DNA from: a virus
Lineage: Duplodnaviria > Caudoviricetes
Length of the DNA stretch: 64,000 bases
Virus record (IMG/VR): IMGVR_UViG_3300029305_003178
Location: 1 to 64,000 of that record
Strand: one strand, 5' to 3'
Shown here: positions 38,164 through 46,476 of the stretch, in pieces
Numbering within the stretch: position 1 is the stretch's first letter
How the letters are laid out: each line of letters starts with the position of its first letter
Translations under genes and position numbers: made by a program
The notes under the pieces: model-generated
What the model was told of the DNA's origin: nothing
The model's input: only the letters and a program-made list of their open reading frames with translations
Databases searched by the model: none

Positions 38164-39048
38164 TTATTCACCACTTTCTTCAGAATTAGTAATAACTAAT
38201 TCATAACCTTTGGCTTCCATATATTCTTGTGCTTGATCACTCAATGGAGAAACAAATTTTCCATTTAAATAAAAATATCCTAATACATACTCATATCTAG
38301 TTTCTTTGTCCAAATAAATAAAGTCTTTATTACCCATACCAGTATCTGTATCGAGAATGGAGACACATTGCTTGGTATCACTATCAATTTGAGCATATGA
38401 TAATTCATACTTTAATCCATCTTTTATTCGTTTATATTTTTCAGCATCGGATAGTGGTGTATAGTAAATCGGAGTTTTATAAGGTTCATCAAATACTCCA
38501 GTATTACCTTCAGGAACATCATATTCTTCTTCATTTAGAATATCGAGTTTTCTACATATTTTATCGAATTTATCAGATAACTCATTTAATTTTTTTATCA
38601 TTATACTTTTCGTATCTTCTTCTTTATTGTCGTATACATATCCTTTAGGTTTAGTATTATTTTTCTCATAACTAACACTAGAATTATCTGTAACTATATT
38701 AGAAAAACTAATTCTAAAATCAGAGTTATAGATATATTCAAAAGCTCTTGTAGAATATGGATCTACAAATTCTTCTTCTAAATAGAAATATCCAACACCA
38801 AATGGATATCTTGCTGTACTAGATATTTTTGGTAATTTAATAAAATATACTGAATCTCTAAGTTTAATATTATGCTCATACTCAGGATAATATAATCTAA
38901 AATAAATTACTTGATTTGTATCTTTTTCAATTATTGCATAAATTCTCTTACCATCTTTATTTTTATTATTTCTAAGATCATCCAAATCATCAATATGCTG
39001 ATGTAATTCCTCTCTAGAATATAAAATAATTGCTGGGTGTTTTTTCAT
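38164..39048 (-). CDS. Two-domain member of GYFYL family
   Basis: Start moved to SD-associated ATG; GVGYFYL..FVDPYS and LGYFYL..FVSPLS. Confidence 0.8.
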   Translation of the reverse strand: MKKHPAIILYSREELHQHIDDLDDLRNNKNKDGKRIYAIIEKDTNQVIYFRLYYPEYEHNIKLRDSVYFIKLPKISSTARYPFGVGYFYLEEEFVDPYSTRAFEYIYNSDFRISFSNIVTDNSSVSYEKNNTKPKGYVYDNKEEDTKSIMIKKLNELSDKFDKICRKLDILNEEEYDVPEGNTGVFDEPYKTPIYYTPLSDAEKYKRIKDGLKYELSYAQIDSDTKQCVSILDTDTGMGNKDFIYLDKETRYEYVLGYFYLNGKFVSPLSDQAQEYMEAKGYELVITNSEESGE

Positions 39049-39064
39049 AATAATCTCTCCTTTA

Positions 39065-39595
39065 TTATAGACCACGTCTAATACCATATAAATTTTCATC
39101 CATACTCTTCAATGTTTCATTCATTTGATGCATGAATTCTAACATATCATTTTCATATGGACTATATTTTGTCGTAATAGACTCTTCTTTAATATCATTT
39201 ACATTAGATATTGTATATCTTTCTTCAGATTCATCATCTGCAAATCTTATATTAAAATTATTAATGCGCATGTATTCGATACCCTCTTTACTATAAGGAT
39301 GAACGAACCCACAATCTAAATAAAAATACCCAATAGCGATATCAGGATAATCACAATACGCAGATGGTAAATTCATATATCTATAGTTAATACCACCATC
39401 AGGCAGCAATATATTTAATTCTTCGACAGTCTCATGATATAATTTTATAACCTGTCTTGTTTTTCTATCCAGCATAACGCTTTTATACCAAAAATATGGA
39501 TGATTATTACTATCATAGCAACGTCCCATACAGTCTTCATGACTCTTATTTATTGTATCAATTGTATAAATTATTACTGTTCCTTTATCTTTCAT
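39065..39595 (-). CDS. GYFYL family protein
   Basis: AIGYFYLDCGFVHPYS...LKSMDENL. Confidence 0.8.
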   Translation of the reverse strand: MKDKGTVIIYTIDTINKSHEDCMGRCYDSNNHPYFWYKSVMLDRKTRQVIKLYHETVEELNILLPDGGINYRYMNLPSAYCDYPDIAIGYFYLDCGFVHPYSKEGIEYMRINNFNIRFADDESEERYTISNVNDIKEESITTKYSPYENDMLEFMHQMNETLKSMDENLYGIRRGL

Positions 39596-39611
39596 ATTAA
39601 TCTATCCCCCT

Positions 39612-40079
39612 TTATTTAGTAATATTGATAAGACTTAAAGTTTCATCCATACTTTTAAGTACAGAAATTAAATCATTCTCAAATTTAGTCTTATATGAGT
39701 ATTCATTAACATCAGTTAATTTATAAGAAGAATTTTCTAATTCACGTGCTGTAAATCGGATTTCAAACTTATTAAATAATACATGCTTAAATCCAGCATC
39801 TGAATAAGGAAACTCAAATGTATTATTTAAATAAAAGAATCCTATACCAACATTTGGGTGTATTTCAGAATTTTCAATATCCATAAAGTCATAATCATCT
39901 CTATTATACATACCACTAAATATTATATCAATAATACTACGATCAATAATATTTACAACTTGTCTATTAGATTTATTTACTATAGCTGTTACATGTGGAT
40001 AATTTTTTCTCCACTCATTAGTCTTATTAACGCTATTCAGTATTTCATGAATAGAATAATAAACTACAAATTTATTCAT
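39612..40079 (-). CDS. GYFYL family protein
   Basis: GIGFFYLNNTFEFPYS...LKSMDETL. Confidence 0.8.
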   Translation of the reverse strand: MNKFVVYYSIHEILNSVNKTNEWRKNYPHVTAIVNKSNRQVVNIIDRSIIDIIFSGMYNRDDYDFMDIENSEIHPNVGIGFFYLNNTFEFPYSDAGFKHVLFNKFEIRFTARELENSSYKLTDVNEYSYKTKFENDLISVLKSMDETLSLINITK

Positions 40080-40223
40080 AATAATCTCTCCCTCTATAAT
40101 AAAATTATTATAAAGTTTTCATGATAATATAAATGTAAAAATATGGTAAAATGAGCTTATTCGAATATATATTATTATCATGAATATAATAAAATAAGCA
40201 TCTTAGAGAGGAGACTTAAAAAT

Positions 40224-40664
40224 ATGAAAAACATTGACGATATTAAATATATGGCTTTGGCTGCATATAAACTGCTGCAACGAGCTAATAAACTTACCAC
40301 ATTTATGCAAACAGACGATTATCCATATATTGATTATAGTATCTGGGATAAGGTTGATGAATTATATGAGGGATCATCTAAAATCCCATACTGTACAACT
40401 TTCTGGTATCTGTTTGAAGACAGATTTACTGGAAAACGATATGCTGGATACGGTGATTTAAATAGACCATCAATGGGAGTAAGCTCTTTGATGGAACTAA
40501 TTGATGATAATTTTTATTACTATGGTGTATGTGTTCACAATACACCTTATGGAATATATTCGTGTCCTGGTCATACACCCAGATACGATAAAAGAAGATT
40601 TAAAGTAGTGCATCAAACAAAAGTAATTCGTGATAAACGCACGAATGAACAATATTGGGTGTGA
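40224..40664 (+). CDS. Early hypothetical protein (cassette 1)
   Basis: 146-aa ORF behind ATATATTATTATCATGAATA promoter block and GAGGAG SD. Confidence 0.8.
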   Translation: MKNIDDIKYMALAAYKLLQRANKLTTFMQTDDYPYIDYSIWDKVDELYEGSSKIPYCTTFWYLFEDRFTGKRYAGYGDLNRPSMGVSSLMELIDDNFYYYGVCVHNTPYGIYSCPGHTPRYDKRRFKVVHQTKVIRDKRTNEQYWV

Positions 40665-40670
40665 TATAAT

Positions 40671-40806
40671 TAGGTAGAGATTAGACATCTCTACCTATAT
40701 ATTTTTTTTATATGATCCGTATTTTGAGATTATTTAATTATATATTATTATCATGAATATAATAAAGATACCTATAAAAATATATCTTAGAGGAGGATTA
40801 ATTATG
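40671..40806 (+). repeat. Hairpin-promoter-RBS cassette, copy A
   Basis: TAGGTAGAGA-ttagaca-TCTCTACCTA, T-run, ATATGATCCGTATTTTGA, TATATATTATTATCATGAATA, GGAGG; ~135 bp highly similar to 41175-41311. Confidence 0.9.
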
Positions 40807-41166
40807 AGATACGCAACATTTATTACAAAACCAAAAAGCGAAAGACGATATATTGAACAACGATTGTTCAAAGCCATGGATTCCATGAAAGATCATAAAG
40901 TATTTAACGATGTATCTGGCGAAAGCATGGATTGTATTGGCTTGGTATTTTTTAAATATGGTATCGGAGCCCTGCTCTCTACAGGATTCTATACAAGAAG
41001 AATTATCCGTATCAATCCACACGGCGCTCATCTTGAGTGTTGGGGATATGCAAGATTTGATAAAATGCTCGAGTATGATGATAGCTCGAACATTAAACAA
41101 TCACTCAAAAGCTATAATGAACGGTGCTCCGAACATGAACATGCGTTAGCATATGTTCTGTTCTAA
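40804..41166 (+). CDS. Early hypothetical protein (cassette 2)
   Basis: Start moved to ATG after GAGGAGG. Confidence 0.8.
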   Translation: MRYATFITKPKSERRYIEQRLFKAMDSMKDHKVFNDVSGESMDCIGLVFFKYGIGALLSTGFYTRRIIRINPHGAHLECWGYARFDKMLEYDDSSNIKQSLKSYNERCSEHEHALAYVLF

Positions 41167-41174
41167 TATTTAAT

Positions 41175-41311
41175 TAGGTAGAGATGTTTAGTCTCTACCT
41201 ATATTTTTTTATATGATCCGTATTTTGAAGTTATTTAATTATATATTATTATCATGAATAAAAGAAAATACATCTATAAAAATATACATTTTAAAGGAGG
41301 ATTTAATTATG
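41175..41311 (+). repeat. Hairpin-promoter-RBS cassette, copy B
   Basis: TAGGTAGAGA-tgtttag-TCTCTACCTA followed by the same spacer and promoter. Confidence 0.9.
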
Positions 41312-41641
41312 AGAACCATTGATACTATCTTTAACGAAATTAATGACCATATTTTTTCTACATTTTGCTATATGGATACTCTTGATAAAGATGTATTTGG
41401 TGCTTTTACGCTGTACAGGGAGTTTATGTCTCTAACTAAAACTTCATTATATAAATACGGGCGTGTTATTGAAAATGATATCACACTTGTAATTTCAGCG
41501 GTTGAAATTACAAATAGTCATGCCCGTATTATTGCAAATGGACATGAGTCTGCATTATATGGTGAAACCGTTAGGAAATTAGCCGATTCGGTTATTAAGT
41601 TTTGCTATGAACGCAAAGAAGAATTAGGTAAAGTCTTCTAA
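41309..41641 (+). CDS. Early hypothetical protein (cassette 3)
   Basis: 110-aa ORF, AAGGAGG SD. Confidence 0.8.
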   Translation: MRTIDTIFNEINDHIFSTFCYMDTLDKDVFGAFTLYREFMSLTKTSLYKYGRVIENDITLVISAVEITNSHARIIANGHESALYGETVRKLADSVIKFCYERKEELGKVF

Positions 41642-41679
41642 GCGTCTCTACCTATATTTATTTGAAAGGGGATTTGATT

Positions 41680-42060
41680 ATGGAATTTACAAACAATGCT
41701 ATCGAAATGATGAAAAACTGTTATACCAATGAACTCATATTTATTAAAAATGTGATAAATGGTGAATTTATCGATGAGGGTGATTTTGGTGACCCAAAGA
41801 AATGTGACATTCTGGTTATTTTAGGAGATATGACAGTAGTACCTATCGATACAACCAAAAGAGGTTACTACCCTATGCGAAAATTAAGAGTCAGATATGA
41901 TAATTCTGGAAATTCTATGGGTTATCGAGAACGCTATCAAATCTCTGATGTATTTATAAACCTTACAGGGGATATTGCTAACGATATTGAGGAGTATAAC
42001 AAAAATCATATTTCCATATATGGTGATTCAGAAAAAATCATTGCATATATCGAAGCATGA
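41680..42060 (+). CDS. Early hypothetical protein
   Basis: Start after ATTTGAAAGGGGA; preceded by half-palindrome TCTCTACCTATATTT. Confidence 0.8.
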   Translation: MEFTNNAIEMMKNCYTNELIFIKNVINGEFIDEGDFGDPKKCDILVILGDMTVVPIDTTKRGYYPMRKLRVRYDNSGNSMGYRERYQISDVFINLTGDIANDIEEYNKNHISIYGDSEKIIAYIEA

Positions 42061-42089
42061 CAAGATTTCATTTGAAAGGGGAATTAATT

Positions 42090-42551
42090 ATGAAAAAGAA
42101 AATTACACAGGACGAGCTCAACAAAATAGTTGAGCTTCATAAAAAATGGCTTAACACAGAAAAAGAAGGTAAACTAGCTATTTTAGACAACATGGATTTA
42201 TATAGATTAAATCTATGTGGTGCAGATCTTCGCTATGCAAAATGTAGAGGCACCAACTTTAAAAGAGCAAATCTTGTTGGTGTTAATTTTGCTAATGCTG
42301 ATTTATCTAATTCCAATTTAGCTAATGCCAATTTATGCTGTGCATATATGGCATATGCTAAAGTTGATAAAGCCAATTTTGACGGTGCAGATTTCTATAG
42401 AATTGCTGCATTTGGTGTTGATTTCACTAATTCTATTAATATGGGCACAGTTGCCAATTTCAACAATATGGAGTTGGCTAATTGGGTAGATCGTGAAGCA
42501 TTTGTACATGGTGATATGAAGACCAAAATTAAACTTGTTTCTGGTAAATAA
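42090..42551 (+). CDS. Pentapeptide-repeat protein
   Basis: HKKWL...ADLRY AKCRG TNFKR ANLVG VNFAN ADLSN SNLAN ANLCC. Confidence 0.92.
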   Translation: MKKKITQDELNKIVELHKKWLNTEKEGKLAILDNMDLYRLNLCGADLRYAKCRGTNFKRANLVGVNFANADLSNSNLANANLCCAYMAYAKVDKANFDGADFYRIAAFGVDFTNSINMGTVANFNNMELANWVDREAFVHGDMKTKIKLVSGK

Positions 42552-42563
42552 TAAAAAAAGAAT

Positions 42564-42601
42564 TAGGTAGAGACTAAACATCTCTACCTATATTTTTTTT
42601 T
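42564..42601. terminator. Third copy of cassette hairpin, bidirectional terminator
   Basis: TAGGTAGAGA-ctaaaca-TCTCTACCTA plus T-run. Confidence 0.85.
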
Positions 42602-42602
42602 C

Positions 42603-43097
42603 TTAAAATATCTTTGGTGGCACTTTTCTATAATCATCTACAATTCTAGTAATTTTCAATTTATGAAAATACTCAATTTTATCAGAATTTACATTTTCTA
42701 TTCTATTATAAGTAGATTTATGGTTAATATATGTATAAGTTTTAAAATCTTTATTATTCTCTATATCACCATAACCATTTTCATCTAAACATACAAACCA
42801 AATACAAAATGGCATATCATCATTCCATAATTCGGAGCAAATGCATGCACAATAATATCCTTTATATTCTAAATTATCAAAATTAAAATATTCATCTGGG
42901 ATACCTTGTACTTTTACTGGAACTAAATCAGTATAAATAACACCATTAAGTTCTACTTCATATTTATCTTTAATATCAAAATCTGATATAAGTTGTATAA
43001 TATTAACAAAATTATCATCATAATTATCGGAATATGTTTCTCCATCAAACAGTATGGATTTATCGGATGAAATATATTTTTTAGTATTTTCTTCCAT
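42603..43097 (-). CDS. Hypothetical protein
   Basis: 164-aa ORF preceded by a G9 tract. Confidence 0.7.
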   Translation of the reverse strand: MEENTKKYISSDKSILFDGETYSDNYDDNFVNIIQLISDFDIKDKYEVELNGVIYTDLVPVKVQGIPDEYFNFDNLEYKGYYCACICSELWNDDMPFCIWFVCLDENGYGDIENNKDFKTYTYINHKSTYNRIENVNSDKIEYFHKLKITRIVDDYRKVPPKIF

Positions 43098-43216
43098 ATG
43101 GGATCACCCCCCCCCACAATATTTATCCATTATATTATTATATGGTTTTCATATGTAGAGTGTTTACGTAGATCTTAATTTAGTATAAGTTAATATATAA
43201 TTATATAAATAATAAG

Positions 43217-43254
43217 ATATGAAGGTATTAGATTGATTTCTAATACCTTCATAT
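43217..43254 (-). terminator. Hairpin terminator
   Basis: ATATGAAGGTATTAGA-TTGATT-TCTAATACCTTCATAT. Confidence 0.8.
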
Positions 43255-43273
43255 ACTTTTTAGGTATACTATA

Positions 43274-44590
43274 TTACCAGAATTCTACTAATTGCCATAC
43301 AAATGGTTGAGTTTTACTAGATGATGTTGCAGTTAAGGATAATACATTATTTGAGAGCACATAATTTGTAACTGTCACCAAACTATTTGTTGTTGTTATT
43401 GGTATCAATAATGTTTTATTGATATTTATGGAAGCTATATTTATATTATATGTGGTACTTGATGTAGCAGTAGTTAGTAAAACGCCAGTTTGTATACGCT
43501 TAATAATTTTAAGACTGTCTGCATATGCAACTGTTTTTGACATTGTTAACCAGGTACCAGCTTTAAGTTTTATAGTAATTGGTACATCTTTTGTTACACG
43601 GACTATTGCATATTTAAGAGTAACTTGAAGTTGAGTGCTGCTTATATAATTTGCACCATTATCTATTGATACTGAACCCGACAAATTATTATTATATTGA
43701 TGTGACCCAAATGCTATTAAGATATCACCGGTTTCTGTAGGAGTATATGTTGTAACAAGTTTACCGTTATCACCTTCATCTCTACTATAACCAGTTGTTG
43801 AACTTAATCTATAAAATACATTAGAAATCATAGCATAATATATAACTGTATTACCTGTGATCGCTGAGGTTGCAGAATTTGTTGCTTGCAACTTAATAAC
43901 TTGACCTTTATTAACAGGTACGGCATGCCCACCAGCATGACCGCTATAATCATTCCAAGTAGATGACGTAACTACTGAGCCATCCACCAATATTCTATAT
44001 GTACCATTTTTACTAACATAGTCAGTATTAATAGCTATAACACACACACCAGTTGAAGGTGCTGTTATCGAGCATATATCTGTATATGTTGATGGTGTAT
44101 TAGCTGGTATATTTAATGTAGTCGCTACCTTATATGAATATTGTGCATCTATAAAACTAGCATCTGCACTAGCTGTTGCAGTGGCATCTGTTAATAAATT
44201 CAGCATACTATCCATAGTTACATTGCTACTACCAATTTTAGATAAAATATCAGATGTATTAATATATGCATTATATGCATGAAGTTGTGCGTTTGATGCG
44301 TTTACAGCAGCACTGTTAGCATTAGTATTAGCACCAAATGATTGATCTATTGCGGTATTTAATTTAGCCATTATTGTGCCAGATGTAATTGTACCACCTT
44401 GATCAGATGTTGCACCAATTATACTTTTTACACTATCAACATTAGTATTAACACTTTCTACAGTATTTTTAACATTTGCAACATTACTATTTACTGTATT
44501 AACATTAGTTTTAACACTGTCTACACTAATATTAACATTATCTAATGTATCTTTATCAGCTAAATAAGTAACAATATTATTATCACTCAT
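43274..44590 (-). CDS. Heptad-repeat fibre/adhesin-like virion protein
   Basis: N-terminus paralogous to 27601..28425; GTIMAKLN linker; C-terminal IKRIQTG...WQLVEF domain. Confidence 0.7.
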   Translation of the reverse strand: MSDNNIVTYLADKDTLDNVNISVDSVKTNVNTVNSNVANVKNTVESVNTNVDSVKSIIGATSDQGGTITSGTIMAKLNTAIDQSFGANTNANSAAVNASNAQLHAYNAYINTSDILSKIGSSNVTMDSMLNLLTDATATASADASFIDAQYSYKVATTLNIPANTPSTYTDICSITAPSTGVCVIAINTDYVSKNGTYRILVDGSVVTSSTWNDYSGHAGGHAVPVNKGQVIKLQATNSATSAITGNTVIYYAMISNVFYRLSSTTGYSRDEGDNGKLVTTYTPTETGDILIAFGSHQYNNNLSGSVSIDNGANYISSTQLQVTLKYAIVRVTKDVPITIKLKAGTWLTMSKTVAYADSLKIIKRIQTGVLLTTATSSTTYNINIASININKTLLIPITTTNSLVTVTNYVLSNNVLSLTATSSSKTQPFVWQLVEFW

Positions 44591-44766
44591 AAGTTTATTC
44601 CTCCTTATAGTATATTTAAAACAACATTTTTATGGAATATGTAACTGTACAAATAAAAGAGATTTCTAAATATTCTAGTTTCAAAATATCTCCTTCTCCC
44701 ATAAAACATTGTATAATATTATTATATAGTATAAAAATAATTAATTTAAGTTACCATTTAAATTAA

Positions 44767-45048
44767 TCATTCATTAATTGCATTCATTTCATACAAATCA
44801 GCAATAGCCATCATCATGACATACTGATTTTCTAATAATTCGTTGTTTGTTGCCTGTACTTCTTCAGGTTCTTCAGGTTCGGGCTCAATCCAAGTACCAT
44901 TGTCATAAGTCCAACCTAAAGGATTTTCACCATTTTCTAATGAAATCATATCATCACCATTTACCATTTCCGGTAAATTAGATACTGCGAAACAAACTTT
45001 AGTTTCCAAGTCAATCTGTGCATATCTATATGAAGCCATATATGTCAC
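44767..45048 (-). CDS. Tail-fibre-associated small protein
   Basis: YAQID...LGWTYDNGTW...ATNNELLENQYVMMMAIADLYE. Confidence 0.7.
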   Translation of the reverse strand: MTYMASYRYAQIDLETKVCFAVSNLPEMVNGDDMISLENGENPLGWTYDNGTWIEPEPEEPEEVQATNNELLENQYVMMMAIADLYEMNAINE

Positions 45049-45135
45049 ACTCCTTATCTTATTTTATTTAATATAAATGATTTTTAAATTGCATACTTAA
45101 TATATAGTTCTAAATTATAAATATCTGGGTTATAA

Positions 45136-45173
45136 ATATAATGGATATAGAAATTAATCTATATCCATTATAT
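45136..45173 (-). terminator. Hairpin terminator
   Basis: ATATAATGGATATAGA-AATTAA-TCTATATCCATTATAT. Confidence 0.75.
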
Positions 45174-45180
45174 TATTTTA

Positions 45181-45510
45181 TTATAAATTCATTTCATATA
45201 AATCAGTAATAGCCATCATAAGAGCATACTGGTTGTCTTCCATAGATGTTAACTGATTTTGAATATCTTTGTTTGTTGGCTGGGGTTCTGTTATTTCATC
45301 AGACTCTGCTGTATTAATATCAAAATATTCAATACTAATTTCTCCATTGTTATATATAAAATTCTTACCTTTACCTTCAATGACTTCACCGTCAAAGAAA
45401 GAAAATTCACCATCGAACCAAACTTCATTTTTTTCTACATCTACACTCTCTTTATCTCTAGTTGTATTATAAGAAATAATATAATTTTTATCATTCAGAA
45501 ATAAAATCAT
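45181..45510 (-). CDS. Tail-fibre-associated small protein
   Basis: PTNKDIQNQL...NQYALMMAITDLYE. Confidence 0.7.
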   Translation of the reverse strand: MILFLNDKNYIISYNTTRDKESVDVEKNEVWFDGEFSFFDGEVIEGKGKNFIYNNGEISIEYFDINTAESDEITEPQPTNKDIQNQLTSMEDNQYALMMAITDLYEMNL

Positions 45511-45525
45511 TACAATACACCTCCA

Positions 45526-46476
45526 TTACAAATCTTCATATACAAGTCCAATATAAACTGGGTGACCACCAACTGTGGTTGTAGCCGAGTTAGATGCAAT
45601 AGTACAATTGAATGTAATTGTATTATTACATGTAAATTCTATAGGTTCATATGCAGGATTTGATAGATAATCAGTGTCTGAACTTACCACCATCCACTGA
45701 CAAGGGATATTTGTTGGTGTTAAATAGTTATCAACAATATTATTATTAGTAGTAGAAACAAAATAGCTATATTTCGTTCTTAGTATATAAGTTTTACCAC
45801 CCGAACTATAACTACCAGTGCTATTATCCATTAATCTATATGTTGTACCATCAACTGTTACAGTCAAATCAAATGCACATTTGGCAGATGAATATGTTGA
45901 TAAAAGTACATTATAAATTTTTTTTGCACCAGTAAATGTGAATGAAGCTATTTTTGTATCATTAACATTAGTTGGTGTTGTATCTTTACAAAATAATACT
46001 TTTAATTTTTTTGTATCTCTAATATCTGTGGAATTCTGTGTAACTGCAATATTAGAAGTCTGATTAATAATATGACTCAATTTCTGAGATAATGTACCTG
46101 TACTAGAAGCAGTATTATTAATTGCTGTTTGTGTCGCAGCAGCTATAGCTTTTGATGCAGCTGTAGAAGAACTTGACTCAGCAGCAGATGCAAATGCATA
46201 TACCTCGTGGACATCTTCAATAATTGTACTTATACCAGTTTTTACATCGGCGACATTAGTATTTACTGTCGCTACATCAGTTTTAACTGCAGCTACATTT
46301 GTATTAATTATATTTACTAAAGATTCTATATCATCTACATTTTCATCAATTGTATCCATAGTTGTTTCAATGTCACTGATACTTTCAGCATTTGCTGAAA
46401 TACCATCTTCCATATTATTTAAATGCATAGCTTTTAATGTCTGATTTTCTACAAAGTTTTGTTTTTCATAAGCCAT
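45526..46476 (-). CDS. Heptad-repeat fibre/adhesin-like virion protein
   Basis: MAYEKQNF...LNNMEDGI fibre N-terminus; VKTDVATVNTNV; NNTASSTGTLSQKLS. Confidence 0.75.
   Translation of the reverse strand: MAYEKQNFVENQTLKAMHLNNMEDGISANAESISDIETTMDTIDENVDDIESLVNIINTNVAAVKTDVATVNTNVADVKTGISTIIEDVHEVYAFASAAESSSSTAASKAIAAATQTAINNTASSTGTLSQKLSHIINQTSNIAVTQNSTDIRDTKKLKVLFCKDTTPTNVNDTKIASFTFTGAKKIYNVLLSTYSSAKCAFDLTVTVDGTTYRLMDNSTGSYSSGGKTYILRTKYSYFVSTTNNNIVDNYLTPTNIPCQWMVVSSDTDYLSNPAYEPIEFTCNNTITFNCTIASNSATTTVGGHPVYIGLVYEDL

Follow-up and report, generated by a model that had tools for sequence, protein, structure and literature searches.

In the genome of an uncultured gut jumbo phage, five small genes of the + strand form an islet (40164-42602) flanked by genes of the − strand, and two of the joints between them are occupied by copies of a unit of about 135 bp, in which a palindrome and a T-run are followed by an upstream box, an early promoter and a Shine–Dalgarno (SD) sequence. 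We consider it probable that this islet is a small array of terminator/early-promoter cassettes in an AR9-like phage, resembling the promoter-early stem-loops (PeSLs) of the T4-type phages RB49/phi1, PST/T4 and nt-1/KVP40 (Arbiol et al., 2010, PMC2839356; Comeau et al., 2014, PMC4122927), and that its ordinary transcription signals double as points at which genes are swapped. The phage is represented by an IMG/VR virus record of 227,229 bp (G000; 29% G+C; estimated completeness 92%), the first 64 kb of which make up the window analysed here; words sampled from the window occur in twelve listed sequencing runs, none of them of RNA, and 37-71% of these words are present in six faeces-metagenome runs of 2018.

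Unit 1 (40668-40803, + strand) contains, in order, a hairpin (40671-40697, loop TTAGACA), a T-run, the box CCGTATTTTGA (40717-40727), a promoter core (40739-40748), a predicted start at G40755, a 5' untranslated region (UTR) and the SD sequence GGAGG. Unit 2 (41172-41308, + strand) repeats this arrangement, with its hairpin at 41175-41201 (the flipped loop TGTTTAG, to which we return below), a T-run, the box at 41218-41228, the core at 41240-41249, a predicted start at G41256, a 5' UTR and an SD sequence. The two are 87% identical over 106 nt, the loop included (48/50 in the promoter part), and, the repeat arrays at 107-108 kb aside, no intergenic duplicate in the genome is better; the whole terminator–promoter–SD unit appears to have arisen in two copies by local duplication. 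The palindrome itself, TAGGTAGAGA-N7-TCTCTACCTA, begins at 40671, 41175 and 42564 (100 shuffles gave none), and the entire record contains no other exact copy. The 3 nt on either side of the hairpin (AAT...TAT) and the downstream T-run keep one orientation in all copies, with loops that read, in order, TTAGACA, TGTTTAG and CTAAACA. Hairpin 3 (42564-42590) lies within a predicted two-way terminator (42553-42602, assigned to neither strand), at the right limit of the similarity between strains described below.

Much of this had been anticipated in an earlier note on this DNA, which placed the two units at 40671 and 41175, a palindrome-only copy at 42564 and a promoter-only copy at 40164, and which recognized the invariant arms, the three loop sequences and the exact reverse complementarity of the last two between flanks of unchanged orientation. 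The elements are indeed where that note had put them (the core of the promoter-only copy is at 40166, and no hairpin accompanies it). One item needs revision: the supposed right-arm-only remnant at 41645 does retain an intact right arm, but it is not an arm alone. It belongs to a decayed fourth copy of the full hairpin (41625-41654, + strand), which has the left arm TAGGTAAAGT (two substitutions), three extra nucleotides and the loop CTAAGCG. This copy overlaps the end of gene 3, the final codons of which cross the decayed left arm, with the TAA stop inside the old loop.

The palindrome has the character of the stem of a predicted intrinsic terminator. Each intact hairpin is a stable, G+C-containing stem-loop with a stem of 10-11 bp (-15.3 to -16.1 kcal/mol, z -4.7 to -6; hairpin 1, -15.3 kcal/mol and z -4.7; hairpin 2, -16.1 kcal/mol and z -5.95), stands 3-13 nt past a stop codon, and has T7-T9 within two bases on its 3' side, corresponding to a direct U-run in the transcript; termination would be expected at such structures. 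Across the genome, 102 of the 228 hairpins with stems of at least 8 bp have a T-run on one side. Hairpin 3 has an A-run before it as well as a T-run after it, and because of the A-run it scores as a terminator on both strands, facing the converging − strand gene at 42603-43097. The decayed copy (-7.9 kcal/mol, z -0.66) folds no better than shuffled sequence and probably no longer terminates, so that genes 3, 4 and 5 probably form one transcript. Left arm and loop, taken together, contain stop codons in all three frames in every copy, for which the rough chance is about 4% at such A+T richness, and from which we draw no conclusion. A further hairpin with a perfect 16-bp stem and a two-strand terminator score, unrelated to this family, lies at 43217-43254 between the − strand genes 42603-43097 and 43274-44590.

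The promoter in the units belongs, to judge from its motif, to a class known from phage AR9, in which the early consensus AAATATATATTAT-(6N)-G+1 is used by the injected virion RNA polymerase without new protein synthesis (Lavysh et al., 2017, PMC5312081). The version at this locus, AATTATATATTAT-TATCAT-G, matches 12 of the 13 AR9 consensus positions. Its 21-nt core is present in exactly three copies (40166, 40739 and 41240), and the 18-nt box ATATGATCCGTATTTTGA in exactly two (40710 and 41211). The promoter-only copy, P1 (40166-40182, + strand; core TATATATTAT, 6N, predicted start G40182), has a degenerate upstream box, lacks a hairpin and is 72% identical to unit 1. The genome contains 34 exact cores (TATATATTAT-N6-G), 31 of them intergenic, although intergenic DNA makes up only 9.8% of the genome, and for 28 of the 34 a same-strand open reading frame (ORF) starts no more than 150 nt away. 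The genome also encodes an RNA polymerase beta-like protein (PF00562, 8e-25). The conserved element here is the AR9-type core-6N-G motif and not the sigma-70-like early promoter of PeSLs, which host RNA polymerase reads; a sigma-70-like pair did score, but pairs of this kind are not enriched, 30 having been found against 34 expected from shuffles. The motif match, the intergenic enrichment and the one RNA polymerase beta-like gene together point to early promoters of the AR9 type, which belong to phages encoding multisubunit RNA polymerases, and we infer that they would be read by the virion RNA polymerase of the phage.

A hairpin with a T-run precedes 10 of the 34 cores, and for this reason terminator followed by early promoter can be regarded as normal punctuation in this genome. 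All ten of these hairpins are different, save the two at this locus: it is the reuse of one hairpin and one promoter version, with identical spacers, that is special here. We also draw attention to the upstream box, (T)CCGTATTTTGA, which ends about 11 nt before the core (as at 40717-40727, 41218-41228, 55355, 93995, 129959, 137965 and 163490). A CGTATTT-type box of this kind is present at 14 of the 34 cores. It is not part of the AR9 early consensus quoted in PMC5312081, and a similar CGTA(A/T)(A/T)T box is found in a relative of the phage (G003); its role may be that of a binding site or of an upstream element of the promoter.

That the units have served in gene exchange is suggested by a sister strain, represented by two contigs (L031 and L037, of 3.6 and 1.5 kb; the pair has the accessions JAEIGA010147264.1 and JAEIGA010747733.1) that were among 12 matched in a single metagenome scan with the hairpin pattern. 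The flanks of the two contigs are 93-96% identical in DNA to the phage studied, while their cargo differs. At the right-hand end, L031 is 95.8% identical to 42564-45602, and the alignment opens exactly where hairpin 3 begins, with an unchanged loop; upstream of that hairpin, 595 nt of L031 are without DNA similarity to the genome studied. They code for a longer pentapeptide-repeat protein (L031 3043-3627), which shares 38% identity with the end of gene 5 and is extended by an extra C-terminal domain. This domain is weakly like a 122-aa ORF at 138616-138984 of the G000 record (33% over 52 aa) and shows a very weak likeness to gene 4 at 41680-42060 (23%, E 0.01-0.02), which may hint at domain shuffling among cargo genes.

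At the left-hand end, the − strand neighbour gene in L037 is 100% identical over 107 aa to its counterpart. There follow a promoter at the position of P1, two genes (X1 and X2), an intact hairpin whose loop is CTAAATA, its T-run, a box and a promoter, and then gene 1', the 137-aa product of which is 38-40% identical to that of gene 1. X1 and X2 occupy the position at which the array would begin, and neither the genome studied nor the relatives G001 and G003 possess them; X2 reads through the left arm of the palindrome and has its stop inside the loop. They encode small basic proteins of 89 and 80 aa (L037 571-1097, − strand of the locus), paralogues that share 32-35% identity and have zinc-ribbon-like pairs of CxxC motifs. 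When all the joints were aligned, the L037 unit proved to equal unit 2 over the part between hairpin and predicted start, and thereafter to equal the 5' UTR of P1, the changeover lying inside the 26 nt of promoter core common to all copies. This P1-like 5' UTR precedes a homologue of gene 1, just as P1 precedes gene 1 in the phage studied. Since the genes on either side of the chimeric unit are unrelated to the cargo here or share only 38% identity with it, units and cargo would seem to have different histories, which is the pattern seen with PeSLs. The suggestion in the earlier note of PeSL-like gene shuffling thus gains support from a near-identical strain in which the units are kept, the cargo is different and similarity breaks at the units; and the fixed gene content that the same note had thought would speak for mere duplication was not seen. 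In these two short contigs, then, close relatives differ by indels or replacements that end in units. The other 10 of the 12 contigs are unrelated or distant and have other loops and no unit; they are set aside, their number being compatible with chance, given the many terminator hairpins in such a collection.

Recombination has, we infer, taken place at the units. As long, near-identical intergenic stretches, they would act as crossover points for ordinary homologous recombination, and a crossover would insert, delete or replace a cargo of 'UTR + gene' with expression kept, as PeSLs do in T4-type phages. Several considerations weigh against this interpretation. The sister strain is represented by two short contigs (3.6 and 1.5 kb), which may stem from different genomes and do not show the inner part of its array. 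Any mechanism that preserved a shared unit would make similarity break off at its edge, so that such a break is no proof of a crossover there. There are only two full units, one promoter-only copy and two hairpin-only copies (one of them decayed), compared with about 50 PeSLs in RB49/phi1. Transcript starts, termination and early timing are all deduced from motif matches, and circles and mixed loop orientations were looked for in the low-depth contigs of four sequencing runs only.

A rival account has to be weighed, according to which these are plain duplicated terminator–promoters with no role in exchange, the islet having been swapped en bloc or by illegitimate recombination, and the likeness of the units reflecting descent together with selection on the signals. 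The identities of the flanks (93-96%) and of the units (85-97%) are compatible with vertical descent, copies amount to a handful, and no circles or recombinant reads were seen in the four runs (low-depth, about 3x). Such an account has more difficulty with the internal unit of L037, which lies between cargo unrelated to, or 38% identical with, that of the phage studied and is a chimera of the upstream part of unit 2 and the 5' UTR of P1. Nor does it readily accommodate the fact that spacers and arms, on which the promoter consensus makes no demand, are identical as well, which sets this locus apart from the other 31 promoters. We therefore regard plain duplication as unlikely, though deserving to be taken seriously, and prefer exchange of cargo at the units.

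Could a dedicated recombinase be at work? The earlier note had proposed an integron-like platform, in which the arm–core–arm palindromes would be sites for a tyrosine recombinase of phage or host, core orientation choosing between excision and inversion. The 10-7-10 geometry does resemble that of lox, FRT or dif-type sites, one core is inverted, and the cargo difference between strains begins exactly at a palindrome. Searches of the 227-kb, 92%-complete record gave no match to PF00589 (tyrosine recombinase; 14/14 control genomes positive) or to PF00239 (serine recombinase; 12/14 control genomes positive), so that neither the phage recombinase that the note had suggested looking for nor an IntI-type tyrosine recombinase beside the array, as integrons would have, was found. 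A RecA-superfamily ATPase is encoded in the genome (PF06745 above the cut-off, RecA below it), and we do not claim it as the recombinase. Every intact palindrome, moreover, has a T-run behind it and the folding of a strong terminator; the left-hand joints are in promoter or UTR, not in the palindrome; the palindrome was not found in the rest of the genome, in IMG/VR, or in G001 or G003; and the flip affects one of the five known copies. Integron cassettes are mostly promoterless and are expressed from the common promoter Pc, whereas here the full cassettes have promoters of their own, genes 1, 2 and 3 each having a promoter copy. Site-specific recombination of this kind seems to us very improbable indeed. 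Hardly more credible, in our estimation, is a variant of the idea without a tyrosine recombinase, in which the palindrome would be a dedicated, structure-specific joint, with an enzyme of phage or host, acting on extruded hairpins or cruciforms, that would cut and rejoin the DNA at the edges of the arms, swap the cargo exactly at the palindrome and sometimes flip the loop; the array would then be an integron-like platform capturing first-expressed genes.

The sequencing runs were consulted in the form of low-depth (about 3x) Logan contigs of 150-925 nt from four runs. These were identical to the window, with no other letters, although coverage of the hairpin 2 loop by any of them was not confirmed. 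With PeSLs, mini-circles are released when neighbouring units recombine. The joints found in the four runs had sides of only 20-31 nt, and none connected two units in these contigs of about 3x depth; we take them to be cross-matches from other DNA. One joint, seen in a single run, went back 2727 nt (from 42889 to 40163) and was considered as a possible circle, but its depth of 7.9, compared with about 3 for the phage, and its short sides mean that it is not evidence for one.

The flipped loop requires an explanation of its own. Loops 2 and 3 (TGTTTAG and CTAAACA) are exact reverse complements, for which the chance is about 4^-7 for one pair. The known loop variants now number five, of which TTAGACA, CTAAACA, CTAAATA and CTAAGCG have one orientation and are one or two substitutions apart. 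The flipped form occurs in unit 2 alone, and both sister-strain copies are unflipped. Because the L037 unit, which is the nearest to unit 2, has an unflipped loop, the flip would most simply be a single derived event in this lineage. Inversion of the loop alone at perfect hairpins, through template switching, has been documented for loops that include those of 7-8 nt (Monttinen & Löytynoja, 2022, PMC8794818), and the present case shares its hallmarks, namely an exactly reverse-complemented loop of unchanged length between perfect stems, with the flanks unaltered. We suppose that the perfect 10-bp inverted repeat would allow a template switch, or an exchange within the hairpin, to invert only the loop, and that a terminator would tolerate the change; the flipped loop of unit 2 would then be a passive by-product. 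Hairpin 'families' with reverse-complemented loops in G000 and G001 were also inspected, but have only eight inner stem bases in common and different flanks, and are uninformative about flipping.

It may be asked whether the palindrome is instead a protein-binding operator, or a programmed switch with information in the orientation of its loop (for example, differential termination at unit 2). Perfect conservation of the arms in four copies and in both strains might be read in this way, and the flipped loop adds one U-G pair in the RNA. The resulting difference in energy is negligible, however (-16.1 compared with -15.3 to -15.7 kcal/mol), the loops drift freely among the copies (TTAGACA, CTAAACA, CTAAATA, CTAAGCG), and the decay of one copy has been tolerated. 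We give this idea scarcely any credence, and continue to view the palindrome as a terminator stem within an exchangeable cassette.

The five cargo proteins are, as the earlier note had supposed, mutually dissimilar (blastp, E<=1). Genes 1 to 4, all on the + strand, gave no Pfam or PHROG match. Gene 1 (40224-40664, 146 aa) is an ORFan, its sole clear relative being gene 1' of the sister strain, and a profile search with it retrieved only short unnamed proteins at E 1e-5 or weaker; gene 2 (40804-41166, 120 aa) and gene 3 (41309-41641, 110 aa) match no family, and neither does gene 4 (41680-42060, 126 aa), with which an ESM Atlas search gave no lead. Gene 5 (42090-42551, 153 aa, + strand) does encode the pentapeptide-repeat protein that the note had recognized (PF00805, 8.2e-13, with PDB matches in addition). 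Genes 4 and 5 are preceded by joints of another kind, comprising only a ribosome-binding site (RBS). The first (41657-41679, + strand) begins with ATTTGAAAGGGGA and is fused directly to the T-run of the decayed hairpin; it is 86% identical over 29 nt to the second (42067-42089, + strand). The shared sequence that had been noted before these last two genes is real, ATTTGAAAGGGGA occurring exactly twice in the genome, at these places. The islet would be read as three transcription units: P1, gene 1 and terminator 1; P2, gene 2 and terminator 2; and P3, genes 3, 4 and 5 (with the decayed terminator inside) and the two-way terminator 3.

For comparison, three relatives (G001-G003) were recovered from IMG/VR by way of a virion protein, and the two complete ones (G001 and G003), whose core genes are 50-65% identical to those of the phage studied, were used. 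Among about 65 ORFs called across 15.3-52.2 kb, six have homologues in G001 or G003, and none does across 35-48.3 kb around the locus; because of this near-absence, the islet can be placed within what appears to be a hyperplastic region of about 37 kb. Single-protein scans with the flank proteins (541 and 438 aa) found no relatives in IMG/VR and none in G001-G003. The locus itself had no blastn match among the INPHARED phages, and scans of IMG/VR with the hairpin and with the box-plus-promoter part of the unit each gave 0 matches.

Two features of the neighbouring DNA deserve mention. To the left of the islet, on the − strand at 38164-40079, are three tandem paralogues (311, 176 and 155 aa) with the motif G-x-G-[FY]-F-Y-L ... 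F-x-x-P-Y-S; the domain occurs twice in the 311-aa protein, pairwise blastp E values are about 1e-5 to 1e-15, and there was no Pfam or PHROG match. To the right, a − strand G-run at 43104-43112 lies 7 nt before the start of the gene at 42603-43097, at the expected place of an RBS. It is G9 here and G11 in L031, a difference that could reflect slipped-strand variation of expression or could be an artefact of assembly.

If our interpretation is correct, PeSL-type shuffling, which has been described for T4-type phages on host sigma-70 promoters, would have its counterpart in an AR9-like jumbo phage, the same logic being suggested by this locus. Reused joints would let small early genes be swapped while remaining expressed, read by the phage's own injected polymerase, and this would help to explain the turnover of ORFan-rich regions of jumbo phages, in which genes for anti-defence and host takeover are expected. 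The locus also provides a clean and datable micro-inversion confined to the loop of a terminator, and illustrates that no recombinase need be invoked when a core is found flipped between perfect arms. A larger repeated-cassette array is suggested in the relative G001, where families of repeated long hairpins (with 26-bp, 16-18-bp and 14-20-bp stems, and two to four copies of each) occur within about 18 kb, at 115-133 kb.

How does the array compare with known systems? Integron attC/attI arrays are likewise rows of unrelated small genes between imperfectly repeated palindromic elements, but here no integrase was found, every cassette comes with a promoter and a terminator, the palindromic elements are stems of terminators, perfect but short and with adjoining T-runs, and some joints are in the promoter and not in the palindrome. 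Template-switch micro-inversions (PMC8794818; Löytynoja & Goldman, 2017, PMC5453318) share with the loop of unit 2 a perfect inverted repeat, an exactly reverse-complemented loop and unchanged length and flanks; the published cases are in hairpins of ribosomal RNA and microRNA, whereas this one is in a predicted phage terminator among paralogous copies, from which the ancestral orientation of the loop can be deduced. With the early units of AR9/PBS1 (PMC5312081) the promoters share the core, the 6N spacing and the G start, a frequency of about 34 copies per genome, and intergenic positions before small early genes; they differ in that 14 of the 34 have the extra CGTATTT-type box. As to PeSLs, the stretches at 40668-40803 and 41172-41308 correspond to the repeated intergenic composite of promoter and stem-loop defined for them (PMC2839356), beginning at the stop codon upstream and taking in, one after the other, a stem-loop terminator, an early promoter, the SD sequence and the start codon. 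The setting, too, is that of PeSLs, a hyperplastic region beside ORFans (gene 1 having no relatives beyond the sister strain), in which close genomes have gained, lost or replaced the genes between units and cease to be similar within the units. The array differs from PeSLs in having an AR9-type virion RNA polymerase motif in place of a sigma-70 promoter; in that its stem-loop is a canonical terminator in its own right, placed upstream of the promoter, where in PeSLs the stem-loop is interleaved with the -35 and -10 elements; in its copy number, with about five related copies confined to a single locus of 2.4 kb, compared with about 50 genome-wide; and in including one copy with an inverted loop.

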